The notes under the pieces were generated by a model. That model was given only the letters and a program-made list of their open reading frames with translations, did not search any database and was not told where the DNA came from. The translations under genes were made by a program, and so were the position numbers. From Patescibacteria group bacterium (GTDB lineage: Bacteria; Patescibacteriota; Microgenomatia; UBA1400; PJMF01), in NCBI GenBank assembly GCA_016861085.1, contig BOKR01000001.1, positions 1,098,040 through 1,162,039 on the forward strand: a DNA stretch of 64,000 bases. Direction: 5' to 3'. This document shows, piece after piece, positions 18,999 through 23,318 of this stretch. How positions within the stretch are numbered: the first letter of the stretch is position 1; the number at the start of each line of letters is the position of its first letter.

Positions 18999-21900
18999 GT
19001 GGCAGAAACTGTTTTAAAGCTAGCTCGCAATTTATCTCAAGTCAAACAACTTTCTTCTGACGTTACACTTTCCACGTACTATCAAGAAATCAAACCATTT
19101 TTATTTGGTACACAAGACACAACCCCAATCAAAAAAGGCTCTCTCCCAGAGGGTGGTATATATAAGATTGCCAAAACAGGGATAATGTCCCCAAGTGACG
19201 ACAAAATTATCATTAAAGTTGCAGGAAAAATAGCAACTGAATACAAAATTGCTAACGTTCGTAATACTCAATTTATTATTGAAATTCAACCAGATAAAGA
19301 TGGTAATAGAAAAAAGCTTCCAAGTGAGTTCTTTTTCCCCAGTGATTTGGTCAGAATTCTCACAGCCCTCGCCAGAATTTTTTACAATGGCAAATTCAAT
19401 GTTGACGCTCTTTTTAAATATGCTTCTAGTTCATCTGATAATCTTGATTTTGTAAAACAATGGGCTCAAGTTGACTCTGAACCAGAATTGCTTAAAAAAG
19501 ATGTTGGTTTCTTTTATGAAGAAAAACTAGAGCGACTCCATGCTGGTGATATTCAGGCCCTACTCACTGCGGTAATTGATGCTGCTGAACAATTTGAAAA
19601 TCAGCACAAAAAAGCTAATTTAGAAGGGTTTGATCCTCAAACTGAGATTGAAAACAAGGTTGTTGCTGCAATTGTTCCACAAATTTTTGAAAAAATTATA
19701 GAAGAAGCTCCAAACCTCCTTAAAAGACAAGAGGGTTTTGAAGAAACAATTAAACCAATTCTTGAAAAGAAAAAAGAGATCATTACAGAAGCTGTAGAAA
19801 AAATTAAAGAGAAATTTACTGCCGAAATTAAATCATTAGTAACTATAAATAAAATAGATTTTTTACGAGAGTTGTTTTCTCAACAAAATTTATATAGTTT
19901 TGCCGAGGCTGGCATTTACGATCAAGAAACAAAATATTTTTTATTCCAAGAGCGAACAACGGATGGTCAAAAAGGACTTGTTGATTCGCCAATTTATCAT
20001 AAATTTGTTGAGCAAGCTATTAAAAAATTTATCGATAATGAGAATCAAACTGATGAGCTGGTAAAAAAACATATCGTTCCATTGTTTAAACCAGAAGTTG
20101 AAGCTGCTGCTGGCGAATCAGAAGCAACCTCTCAGGAAGGCGGCGACCAACCAAAAATCGAAGAACAAGTTGTATTAGAAAACCCAATTTCTTTTGAAGT
20201 GTTCAAAAGAAGATTAGCTGATGATGTCGTTAAAAGCCTTACTGAATCTTTCTTAGTTTTTGTTTCATCACAATATACTGGTGATTTTTCGAGATATAAA
20301 AATAGAATTGTAGACAATTACCTCTCACCAGTTTTGGAATCCCTCAGAAACCAAGTTGAAGTTGCTGTTGTTACCCCATTTGAAATTATTGAAGAAGAAA
20401 AGGATGAGTTAATTCAGCAAGAACTCTTTACACTTGGTAACTTTAGTCAAAATGTATTTGAATCAGAATGGTATAACGACCTTCTAACTCAAAGTAATGA
20501 GTACATTCTTCAAACTGCCTCCTCTCCTGACTCTCAATACTCTAGTTATTTTGAATTCTTATATGAACAGTATATTTCTCCTGCTATCGTCTTATTAGAA
20601 GAAGAAACTCCAGAACAAGCCGAAGCTGAAGAAGACGTTACTGTTACACAGCGACCAACTGGGGCCGTGGTTCCTACAGAAATACCTACATCTGCTCCAA
20701 CTACAGTAATTCAAACTAAGACTGATGAAATAAATCGACTCACCCCAGAACAGATTCGTTCACTACAGTACGAATCTGCATGGATGTATAACCGAGCAGT
20801 GTACGAACTCTTTACTTCTCAAGGAATCAATCAAAAAGATATTGATCCCTTAGTCCTTCAGACACTCCAAGAAAAAGTTTTTACCTATGCTACCTCGATG
20901 AATAGTGAGGACTTTAACAAGTTGTTTGGAAGTGCATCATACCGTCAAAAAGCCCTTTTAGATTTCTACCAAAAAACTGGCTACGGAATTGACAAATTTC
21001 ACAATGCACAGGAACTGCTAGGAGCTACTCTTTTTAAGTCATTTAACCTTGATAGTCCTGTGGTTACCAAAAATATCGAAAATACGCTTGATAGTTTGAT
21101 TCTTCAATACGGTCTCAACCAAACCTTTTATGGGTTTGATCCAGATACAAAAACGGTCACAGAGTTTTCTGGAAAAAATGCTCACGATGTTATTTGGTTT
21201 ATTGAGAACATTCCAAATGACCGCCTTGCATTAATTTTTAACTTGCCAAGCAGCTTGACCTTTAATGATGAGACTATTACTCGTCTCAAGAAAGTTCTTA
21301 AAGATTATGCCCAATATCGGGGAAGCGAGCTGTCGCTTCATATCCAAAATATTAGTATACAAAAAGGGTTGATTCATATTAGTGCTGCAGATGCAGAAAA
21401 AATAAAAAAGGGCGATCAAGAAACAATCGTTAAACACCTCAGCTTTACAAACGATTTAAGAGACATGACTAAGAAACTCGGTGGTGAATCTGTTGCCGGT
21501 GCACTAGATGAAAAATCAAAAAGTCATAGAAAAGAAATTCAAAAACAATTTAAAACATTTCTTCCGCTTTGGAACCAACTTTCTGGAGTTGAACAAGCAG
21601 AAGTTTACAGAAATTATGATATACCAATTCCTCCAGAATATTTAACCAATGGAAAACCTGATCCAAGAAAACTTGAAATTGCAAAACTTGCTTTTATTCC
21701 AGAGTTTGCCTTTTTTGATGTTAGAAAATTTGACGAAATCAAAAACATTATAAAAAGAAACAATTTAGATAGAGCAAAACAACTTGAGCTTGAAGAAATT
21801 GCTTCTATTCAAGATCAACTCATTAAAGAACAAAGAATCGCTGAGTTTTTAAATTCTGTCTACGACAATAATTCGCAAGAGAGTGAATTAGTCGAAATTT

Positions 21901-23318
21901 ATGAATATGCTGGAGTTGATGAAGGAGAACTTTCATTTCGGGAGAAATTTGATATTGATCAAACAATTGAAGAGTCTGGAACAAGATCCTCTCAAAGACG
22001 CGATGGCTTTGCTTCAAGAATTACCAATCGGTTTAGAAAAGAAAAAAAAGCTAGACTTAACCCTTTGGAAAAAGCCAAAAAGGCAACTAAAAAAGCAGCT
22101 GGAGAAGCAATTAGTCAGGGACTCAGTAAGGCTGCTGCTGCTGGTATAAGTGCAGTCCTTCCAGGCTTAGGTGCGCCTATCGGTGCAGCACTAATGGCCA
22201 TAAAAAATAAAAAAGTTAGAAATTTCCTCTCTACAGCAGTATTGGGAGGGTTAGCTTTCATCATTGGCAGAACAATTTGGGCTTTAGGTAGTATTGGAGG
22301 ATTAATCGGTGGAATTGTTGGTGGTGTAGGTGGATTTGTTTTTTTAGGCGGTCCAGCAGGAATATTGCCTGGGGTAATTATTGGTGCTAACGCTGGAGAA
22401 TTTCTTGCATCCCAATTAGGATTAAATTGGCGCTGGGATAATGCTCTGTTTGGAAAGTCAGCACCAGCTCCTACTCTCATACCACCTGAACCCAGTATGG
22501 CGGCGGCAAGAATTCCTGCTGCAGCTGCTCCTGTAGTAGTCACTCAACCCTATGTTCCTCCTCCACCAAAAGACATTAGAACTCCAAAAGTAACTGATGT
22601 AATAAATACCACCGCTGGTATTGGTATCGTAGCTGCTGGAGCCTTCGCTCTTATGGGAGTAGTCATTACTTTATTCGTCATCTTTACCATCCAAAGCGCT
22701 TTTCTTATTCCTGTTCCAAAAGCCAGAACAAGTACTGGTGCTCCAATTCTAGGAACTTTTGGATGCTTTGAGTTTGGCCCGGCAGGATATACAAAACAAA
22801 TCGGTAGCCCTCCAGTAGCCACAACTTCTATTGAATGGACAGAATCTGACCAAACAACACTTGAAGCCGGATTTGCAAAAGTCGCTTCAAACAACCAATA
22901 TATTGATCTTTTATGTAGTGCTGGACCAATAACTGTGTATAGATTTCCAGTAAGTACTCAAGGGTTTTGGGGATGGGTTACCGGACCAAATGAAATGATT
23001 TTATATGGCGGGGCTTTTGGAAGTACCGCTGGTATGGAATACGTTTTAATTCATGAAACTGGCCATATTATTCAAGGTAGGAATCCTGGTCTTGTTAGCA
23101 ATTTCCTTCAAATAAAAACAGATAGTTCCTGTTATACCTATCCTTTTCCAGACCTTTGTAACTACGGTGAAGCCTTTGCAGAAGGACTTGTGCTATACGT
23201 AACCGGGGACTTTTTCTTTGGAAACAGTGCTTGGAGCGGTGCATATCCGTTTCAGGCAAACTATCCTGCAGAGTATAATTGGTATAAGAATAATGTTTTT
23301 GGAGGACAGGAATATTAA
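18999..23318 (+). CDS. Giant (1439 aa) protein: ~1040-aa charged/coiled N-region, glycine-zipper TM segments, Pro-rich linker, a further TM, and a C-terminal HExxH zinc-metallopeptidase-like domain
   Basis: GLIGGIVGGVGGFVFLGGPAGILPGVIIGANAG glycine zipper. LIHETGHIIQG (HExxH) with GEAFAEG downstream, a possible gluzincin third ligand. Probable GTG start. Confidence 0.5.
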   Translation: MAETVLKLARNLSQVKQLSSDVTLSTYYQEIKPFLFGTQDTTPIKKGSLPEGGIYKIAKTGIMSPSDDKIIIKVAGKIATEYKIANVRNTQFIIEIQPDKDGNRKKLPSEFFFPSDLVRILTALARIFYNGKFNVDALFKYASSSSDNLDFVKQWAQVDSEPELLKKDVGFFYEEKLERLHAGDIQALLTAVIDAAEQFENQHKKANLEGFDPQTEIENKVVAAIVPQIFEKIIEEAPNLLKRQEGFEETIKPILEKKKEIITEAVEKIKEKFTAEIKSLVTINKIDFLRELFSQQNLYSFAEAGIYDQETKYFLFQERTTDGQKGLVDSPIYHKFVEQAIKKFIDNENQTDELVKKHIVPLFKPEVEAAAGESEATSQEGGDQPKIEEQVVLENPISFEVFKRRLADDVVKSLTESFLVFVSSQYTGDFSRYKNRIVDNYLSPVLESLRNQVEVAVVTPFEIIEEEKDELIQQELFTLGNFSQNVFESEWYNDLLTQSNEYILQTASSPDSQYSSYFEFLYEQYISPAIVLLEEETPEQAEAEEDVTVTQRPTGAVVPTEIPTSAPTTVIQTKTDEINRLTPEQIRSLQYESAWMYNRAVYELFTSQGINQKDIDPLVLQTLQEKVFTYATSMNSEDFNKLFGSASYRQKALLDFYQKTGYGIDKFHNAQELLGATLFKSFNLDSPVVTKNIENTLDSLILQYGLNQTFYGFDPDTKTVTEFSGKNAHDVIWFIENIPNDRLALIFNLPSSLTFNDETITRLKKVLKDYAQYRGSELSLHIQNISIQKGLIHISAADAEKIKKGDQETIVKHLSFTNDLRDMTKKLGGESVAGALDEKSKSHRKEIQKQFKTFLPLWNQLSGVEQAEVYRNYDIPIPPEYLTNGKPDPRKLEIAKLAFIPEFAFFDVRKFDEIKNIIKRNNLDRAKQLELEEIASIQDQLIKEQRIAEFLNSVYDNNSQESELVEIYEYAGVDEGELSFREKFDIDQTIEESGTRSSQRRDGFASRITNRFRKEKKARLNPLEKAKKATKKAAGEAISQGLSKAAAAGISAVLPGLGAPIGAALMAIKNKKVRNFLSTAVLGGLAFIIGRTIWALGSIGGLIGGIVGGVGGFVFLGGPAGILPGVIIGANAGEFLASQLGLNWRWDNALFGKSAPAPTLIPPEPSMAAARIPAAAAPVVVTQPYVPPPPKDIRTPKVTDVINTTAGIGIVAAGAFALMGVVITLFVIFTIQSAFLIPVPKARTSTGAPILGTFGCFEFGPAGYTKQIGSPPVATTSIEWTESDQTTLEAGFAKVASNNQYIDLLCSAGPITVYRFPVSTQGFWGWVTGPNEMILYGGAFGSTAGMEYVLIHETGHIIQGRNPGLVSNFLQIKTDSSCYTYPFPDLCNYGEAFAEGLVLYVTGDFFFGNSAWSGAYPFQANYPAEYNWYKNNVFGGQEY

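Follow-up and report, generated by a model that had tools for sequence, protein, structure and literature searches.

The locus described here raises the question of what a very large membrane protein, ending in an apparent metalloprotease domain, is doing inside a type IV secretion system (T4SS) operon of an ultrasmall bacterium of the Patescibacteria group. The window (the whole stretch of DNA that was analysed, 64,000 nucleotides, positions 1,098,040 to 1,162,039 of the forward strand of contig BOKR01000001.1, assembly GCA_016861085.1) contains at 18999-23318 an intact gene, the sole long open reading frame (ORF) at that position, whose product is referred to below as the giant protein. The preferred reading, to which a probability of roughly 55% was assigned, is that the giant protein is a T4SS-coupled, membrane-tethered surface zinc endopeptidase, and as such a conserved component, either subunit or accessory, of the Patescibacteria T4SS. 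What is new is the sequence family and its T4SS-associated architecture; the kind of enzyme is known and no new principle is involved. The parts of the gene on which the argument depends are as follows (TM, transmembrane).

18999-23318, + strand: whole gene of the T4SS-cluster membrane protein, GTG start, TAA stop, 1,439 amino acids
18999-22118, + strand: N-region, residues 1-1040, acidic, Cys-free, predicted to be mostly helical, multi-domain
22005-22127, + strand: basic juxtamembrane segment, residues ~1003-1043, 12 Lys/Arg
22128-22394, + strand: glycine-zipper hydrophobic cluster, residues ~1044-1132, 3-4 helices with GxxxG repeats
22455-22583, + strand: Pro-rich linker, residues ~1153-1195, including a PPPP run
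22608-22718, + strand: last TM helix, residues 1204-1240, immediately N-terminal to the catalytic domain
22731-23315, + strand: predicted zincin (gluzincin) endopeptidase domain, residues 1245-1439, ~195 amino acids, ATLF/PPEP/MtfA-like fold
22764-23159, + strand: segment with every Cys of the protein, four in all (C1256, C1306, C1378, C1387), candidate disulfides
23052-23066, + strand: HETGH, residues 1352-1356, with predicted zinc ligands H1352 and H1356 and predicted catalytic base E1353
23139-23141, + strand: Y1381, invariant, candidate oxyanion-hole Tyr equivalent to Y190 of PPEP-3
23169-23183, + strand: E1391-A-F-A-E1395, in which E1391 is the candidate third zinc ligand and E1395 is 99% conserved

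The sequence-only reading had placed a HETGH motif and a downstream GEAFAEG (residues 1390-1396, nucleotides 23166-23186) in a C-terminal domain of ~230 amino acids; both motifs were present, but the domain is smaller, at ~195 amino acids. HExxH occurs once in the giant protein, against 0.008 occurrences expected from its composition. An exhaustive HMMER search (query residues 1236-1439, against cluster representatives at 50% identity) identified 224 representatives of the zincin family at E<=1e-3, of which 72 reached E<=1e-10, while word-indexed homologue searches were nearly blind to it (0, 2 and 4 matches). This is a large zincin family for which there is no Pfam or NCBIfam model. Among the 150 relatives listed of the 224, the domain lay at the extreme C-terminus in nearly all, mostly in proteins of 600-1,670 amino acids, and HExxH stood at an equal distance from the C-terminus in 148.

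It was observed that H1352, E1353, H1356, Y1381 and E1391 were invariant in all 137 aligned domains, which span relatives down to ~25-30% identity, and the same result was given by an alignment of 46 sequences. E1395, F1393, C1256, C1306, G1252 and Y1348 were each at least 95% conserved in the 137 domains, and the residues of the ExFAE motif 84-100% conserved. With the motif invariant in the aligned domains and, in nearly all of the listed relatives, at a fixed distance from the C-terminus, HExxH is not a chance occurrence; this conservation was decisive for accepting HETGH as genuine. We infer that the domain is a catalytically intact module of gluzincin type, with zinc binding and activity predicted from these residues. 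That the motif is nevertheless fortuitous, or that the domain is a pseudo-protease without activity whose role as an ectodomain is purely structural, might be argued from the fact that no curated family model matches it, but with five catalytic-type residues invariant at such distances and a confident zincin-fold model such an explanation is scarcely credible.

Scans of the whole protein and of four pieces of it gave no Pfam match even at E<=10, and scans of the whole protein and of the C-terminal domain gave no NCBIfam match. When 46 members of the family were scanned singly, only scattered sub-threshold matches to assorted zincin models were obtained: Pfam ATLF (PF07737) was matched by 3 of the 46 (best E 0.015; the window protein had no match at E<=10) and M48 weakly by 4 (best E 0.073). 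DUF4157 was not among the 25 of the 27 matched families that were listed for these members. It had been suggested from the HExxHxxQ context that the domain resembles the toxin-associated DUF4157 metallopeptidases, with M48 and Wss1-like enzymes named as further candidates. The HETGHIIQ of the window does fit HExxHxxQ, and M48 gave the weak matches mentioned above. No Pfam model, DUF4157 (PF13699) and M48 included, matched the C-terminal region at E<=10, and the Q of the longer motif is not conserved: Q was found in 9 of the 137 aligned domains at the position of Q1359, where D is commonest. For this reason the DUF4157-like idea fails; HExxH is common to this domain and the DUF4157 domains of polymorphic toxins, and Q three residues further on is shared by the window sequence only. 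No better profile or fold match was found to M48 or to Wss1-SprT-like proteins than to other zincins. Membership of any of these three groups was accordingly judged highly improbable.

A more coherent signal was obtained from solved structures. As a single-sequence query against PDB sequences, the C-terminal domain matched only hepatitis C E2, which was rejected as spurious. The family profile gave weak but coherent matches to anthrax lethal factor (E 0.0012) and to two Pro-Pro endopeptidases (PPEPs), PPEP-3 (ATLF-like, 0.011) and PPEP-1/Zmp1 (~0.02), in alignments running from HExxH across E-x-F-A-E to the last helix. The catalytic domain was modelled by AlphaFold2 with the family alignment (pLDDT 91.7, pTM 0.89). 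In the model a beta-sheet subdomain with an edge strand is followed by an active-site helix carrying HExxH (model helix 99-117, residues 1343-1361) and by a helical C-subdomain bearing E1391 (in model helix 145-158) and E1395, which is the arrangement of a zincin; the closest fold among solved structures was that of the ATLF/PPEP and lethal factor group. PPEP-3 coordinates zinc through H153, H157 and E197, uses E154 as its base and has Y190 as its oxyanion residue (PMC12828418). The equivalents in the giant protein are H1352, H1356 and E1391 (ligands), E1353 (base) and Y1381 (oxyanion). The gluzincin-like character claimed for the C-terminal module was thus borne out, HExxH being invariant and the invariant E1391 aligning with the third ligand of lethal factor and the PPEPs.

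The PPEPs and the giant protein share an HExxH helix, an oxyanion Tyr after it and, further on, a helix with the E-x-F-A-E motif that supplies the Glu ligand, and PPEPs are extracytoplasmic enzymes of monoderm bacteria, a location that is probable for the domain of the giant protein also. The differences are considerable: sequence identity is only 11-18%, the ATLF Pfam model is not matched at threshold, the spacing from Tyr to Glu is 10 compared to 7 in PPEP-3 (the loop is three residues longer and holds C1387), and PPEPs are small secreted enzymes whereas the domain described here is tethered at the end of a 1,240-amino acid protein and encoded within a T4SS operon. The EFFAE of lethal factor aligns with E1391-A-F-A-E1395, but sequence likeness is marginal, and the giant protein lacks accessory domains of lethal-factor type and is not a soluble toxin. 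Likeness to MtfA is marginal also, and the giant protein is not a cytoplasmic regulator. PPEP-1, -2 and -3 belong to MEROPS family M34, and MtfA to M90. By profile and predicted structure, the domain represents a new sequence family of gluzincins that has the ATLF/PPEP and MtfA group as its closest neighbours.

The position of the domain relative to the membrane was assessed from its relatives. The short stand-alone forms (the protein at 9827-10597 of locus L011, P0094, P0146, P0145 and P0147) begin with either a Sec-type signal peptide, as in the first three, or a single N-in anchor. Across the family, C1256 and C1306 are ~95% conserved, and in closer relatives none of the four Cys varies. 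Because signal peptides occur in stand-alone relatives and the domain contains all the Cys of the giant protein, the zincin domain is probably extracytoplasmic, the topology of the fused form being deduced from these relatives. The glycine-zipper helices noted previously at residues 1045-1110 were present, though that range was slightly short (~1044-1132 when measured), and the Pro-rich linker and further TM helix said to follow them were both located (13 Pro within residues 1150-1196, and the TM helix at 1204-1240). G-x3-G-x3-G was found N-terminal to the zincin domain in 87 of 116 family members of at least 600 amino acids, so the zipper is a conserved family trait; the curated Gly-zipper Pfam models gave no match to residues 1041-1439, even at E<=10. 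In many members a spacer of ~130 amino acids separates the last TM helix from the zincin domain and contains the motif K-T-A-x-P ... T-Y-x-I-x-I-T-P-K, which recurs among members; of eight spacers scanned, two (P0019 and P0010) matched DUF7507 weakly and below threshold (E 0.0018-0.011).

The remaining ~1,040 residues were described as charged and helical, and so they proved: the region is acidic (166 Asp and Glu, 128 Lys and Arg), contains no Cys and no signal peptide, and is predicted to be mostly helical. Its lack of a signal peptide and of Cys and the basic juxtamembrane stretch at its end suggest that it may be cytoplasmic. No relatives of the N-region were detected outside the zincin family. 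In a structure model it formed compact helical domains and not long or extended rods, and a tape-measure-like reading of the protein was downgraded on this ground.

The giant gene stands in a T4SS locus, as the sequence-only reading had stated, with PrgI, TrsD-like and VirB4 genes downstream and eight VirB2-like pilin ORFs upstream. The operon runs in the order 712-amino acid protein, giant protein, 194-amino acid single-TM protein (g194), PrgI/VirB3-like protein, TrsD-like protein and VirB4, with gaps of 2-33 nucleotides, and dnaA, dnaN, yidC and jag follow VirB4. Its downstream features are given below.

23321-23905, + strand: g194, ATG 2 nucleotides after the stop codon of the giant gene, one N-terminal TM helix and a conserved ectodomain
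23934-28462, + strand: rest of the operon, comprising PrgI/VirB3-like (23934-25115), TrsD-like (25149-26333) and VirB4 ATPase (26354-28462)

The TrsD-like assignment of the 394-amino acid gene at 25149-26333 (+ strand), between PrgI and VirB4, is based on weak NCBIfam matches to the N-terminal part of VirB4. In the source annotation the neighbours of the giant gene are hypothetical proteins and VirB4 is BroJett025_11100; from the gene numbering only, the giant gene is probably BroJett025_11060. The eight tandem small ORFs at 2475-6190 (+ strand) match the VirB2-like T4SS_pilin model, four of them above the Pfam cut-off. Similar pilin arrays have been reported from Saccharibacteria, where they are essential, and a gene for a sigma factor of extracytoplasmic function (ECF) type lies just upstream of it on the opposite strand (1861-2385). 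At 10996-12633 (+ strand) there is a gene for a 545-amino acid protein with a signal peptide, ~6-8 TM segments and no Pfam match, a candidate VirB6 analogue.

Related loci were obtained by a metagenome search run with a 10-sequence alignment of the zincin family. The order giant gene, g194, PrgI, TrsD-like, VirB4, dnaA was found in L001, L003, L005, L006 and L009 (in L001 the ORF in the g194 position was assigned by position only, as phmmer did not detect it), and the same order up to the contig limits in L002, L004, L007 and L008, all nine loci having 26-46% identity in the query protein. The same T4SS gene order was also found in L012, a metagenome-assembled genome (MAG) of Saccharimonadia. 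The architecture had been called unusual; it is indeed undescribed, but it is conserved and syntenic in many Patescibacteria. No zincin, HExxH or metalloprotease component is mentioned in the main text of either of two papers on the Patescibacteria T4SS (PMC12102498 and PMC10633639). Published surveys list VirB1-, B2-, B3-, B4-, B6- and B8-like and TrsD parts and not the giant protein, and the Patescibacteria passages of a 2025 T4SS review name VirB1-, VirB3-, VirB4-, VirB6-, VirB8- and VirD4-like proteins and VirB2-like pilins and no such protein.

The systems to which the giant gene is linked are related to monoderm conjugation systems, are often near dnaA and mostly lack a relaxase (PMC12102498). 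Epibiotic growth of Southlakia epibionticum requires its T4SS cluster (PMC10633639), and the Patescibacteria T4SS is the first T4SS reported to be essential to its own carrier. The giant protein is thus a candidate new part of a machine that is essential for epibiotic growth in a related species. Since a conserved, catalytically intact and putatively surface-exposed protease, attached to a very large and putatively cytoplasmic module, is encoded at a fixed place beside PrgI, TrsD and VirB4, it offers a concrete and mutable candidate for opening or maturing the path to the host. The finding is of moderate value, since it concerns a well-known class of enzyme whose function here is deduced.

On the preferred reading, the ~1,040-amino acid helical N-region would lie in the cytoplasm, joined through the basic segment and the glycine-zipper TM bundle to the last TM helix, which would put the ~195-amino acid zinc endopeptidase on the outer membrane face of the monoderm cell. 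H1352, H1356 and E1391 would bind zinc, E1353 would act as the catalytic base and Y1381 would stabilise the transition state, and the enzyme would cut a polypeptide in the wall zone beside the T4SS channel or pilus. The preferred substrate class is a surface or envelope protein (T4SS ectodomains, VirB2-like pilins, g194, adhesins or host surface proteins), with cell-wall peptide cross-links, in a VirB1-like role, as the second preference; with either substrate the enzyme would help the machine to assemble or to reach the host. A protein substrate was considered likelier than peptidoglycan because, to our knowledge, every characterised relative of this fold cuts ordinary polypeptides.

Several points weigh against this reading. 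A simple, crude positive-inside count around the last TM helix across the family came to 50 versus 46, and the glycine-rich cluster, with its 3-4 helices, leaves the count of membrane crossings uncertain. We know of no enzyme of ATLF/PPEP/MtfA-like fold that is a peptidoglycan hydrolase. The N-region showed no detectable likeness to any T4SS part, and its physical coupling to the VirB4/TrsD ATPases, by docking, is for that reason purely conjectural. A survey of Patescibacteria T4SSs has also suggested that biogenesis of the VirB2 pilus may not need a VirB1 homologue there (PMC12102498).

The possibility that the giant protein is a cell-wall peptidase replacing VirB1, its ectodomain cutting stem peptides or cross-bridges (its own or the host's) to let the T4SS or pilus through, was considered in view of the content of the cluster. 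No canonical VirB1-type hydrolase was recognisable in the cluster of the window or in the flanks of related loci, and monoderm T4SSs normally have a membrane-anchored wall hydrolase. The Southlakia T4SS cluster encodes SEML1_0007, an essential protein of 1,113 amino acids with a C-terminal domain of Hedgehog/DD-peptidase fold, and a lysozyme-CHAP protein that is likewise essential. The giant protein shares with VirB1-like wall hydrolases (PrgK, TraG and CwlT; SEML1_0007 and SEML1_0006) a hydrolytic ectodomain encoded inside the T4SS cluster, and with SEML1_0007 in particular a length of more than 1,100 amino acids and a small C-terminal domain of metallopeptidase fold, and by analogy SEML1_0007 is a possible functional counterpart. 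Encoding in the T4SS cluster is shown by synteny, and exposure to the outside is supported by the signal peptides of stand-alone relatives, from which it would extend to the fused form. One relative, P0055, carries after the zincin domain (residues 1408-1561) a match to phosphodiester-glycosidase (NAGPA) of 24.5 bits, compared to a Pfam cut-off of 25 bits. The fold of the giant protein, however, is that of a zincin and no known peptidoglycan-hydrolase fold (it is not lysozyme/SLT, CHAP/NlpC-P60, M23 or M15), the nearest structural relatives (PPEPs, lethal factor and MtfA) act on L-amino-acid proteins and peptides, no peptidoglycan-binding domain was found in the zincin family, and the gene is upstream of PrgI and not downstream of VirB4. 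The absence of another hydrolase from the cluster and the Southlakia parallel keep this explanation alive, though it was considered rather unlikely.

A further alternative is that the T4SS exports the giant protein, or its C-terminal half, as an effector or translocon, the zipper helices forming a pore in the host membrane and the protease acting on envelope or cytosolic proteins of the host. Glycine-zipper motifs are typical of several pore-forming toxins and are conserved here, a toxin, lethal factor, belongs to the same fold group, and the giant protein has no N-terminal signal peptide though its catalytic domain looks extracytoplasmic. The T4SS of Patescibacteria, lacking a relaxase and coupling protein, may export proteins (PMC10633639). 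Against export, the domain and TM module show the strong conservation and constant gene order of a structural gene and not the variability of effector cargo, stand-alone versions have ordinary Sec signal peptides, and the N-region model of compact helical domains contains no extended ruler-like rod. Delivery as an effector was regarded as improbable.

An adenosylcobalamin (AdoCbl) riboswitch match was found at 16679-16837 (+ strand) of the window, directly upstream of the T4SS operon and one gene before the giant gene, with a score of 51.4 bits compared to a gathering score of 50; on its 3' side the aptamer ends directly against an ATG that is the fourth codon of the 712-amino acid ORF and in frame with it. 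Syntenic matches below threshold were present in L001 (7579-7722, 45.4 bits) and L006 (5662-5777, 47.3 bits), and across the three genomes the core sequence was conserved, with compensatory changes at 5 of 17 predicted pairs. The element was absent from L003 and L009, and no description of a cobalamin riboswitch before a Patescibacteria T4SS operon was found in the literature searched. In a scan for promoters and terminators, sites were no more numerous than in shuffled controls. The riboswitch enters a still less probable version of the export idea, drawn by analogy with the logic of a phage tape measure, in which VirB4 and TrsD would, once contact was made, feed the giant protein out through the VirB2-like pilus, the zipper would serve as a conduit in the host membrane, the protease would cut host envelope proteins and the riboswitch would gate expression. 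If this were true, the giant protein would be the device, so far missing from the Patescibacteria T4SS, that opens the host, and the gating would link nutrient or cofactor status to host piracy.

The adjacent g194 is a candidate partner, regulator or substrate of the zincin. Homologues of g194 were found in L002-L009, L011 and L012, directly after the zincin gene wherever the locus was long enough, and no family or structure match to g194 was found. It was rejected as an obvious Pro-Pro substrate, as there is no conserved PP site and only a variable LTPPTPP near the TM helix. In L011, the most distant locus, the module is split (9028-10597, + strand) and both genes follow VirB4 rather than precede PrgI: a 264-amino acid protein, charged at its N-terminus and with one TM helix, is followed by a 256-amino acid zincin with a signal peptide and then by a g194 homologue. 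The split zincin is still accompanied by g194 and near VirB4, and therefore the pairing of zincin with g194 and the association with VirB4 predate the fusion.

Two further observations concern the neighbouring genes and loci. The PrgI/VirB3-like protein encoded at 23934-25115 (+ strand) has a C-terminal match to CarboxypepD_reg of 30.1 bits compared to a cut-off of 32.3 bits, which suggests a beta-sandwich ectodomain, and the same pairing, also weak, was seen at 1527-2672 of L012. L001 (CAZUHV010000003.1) is titled 'uncultured Pseudomonadales bacterium', and 11 of its genes, including dnaA and dnaN, are collinear with the window; the taxonomic label of this bin looks wrong.

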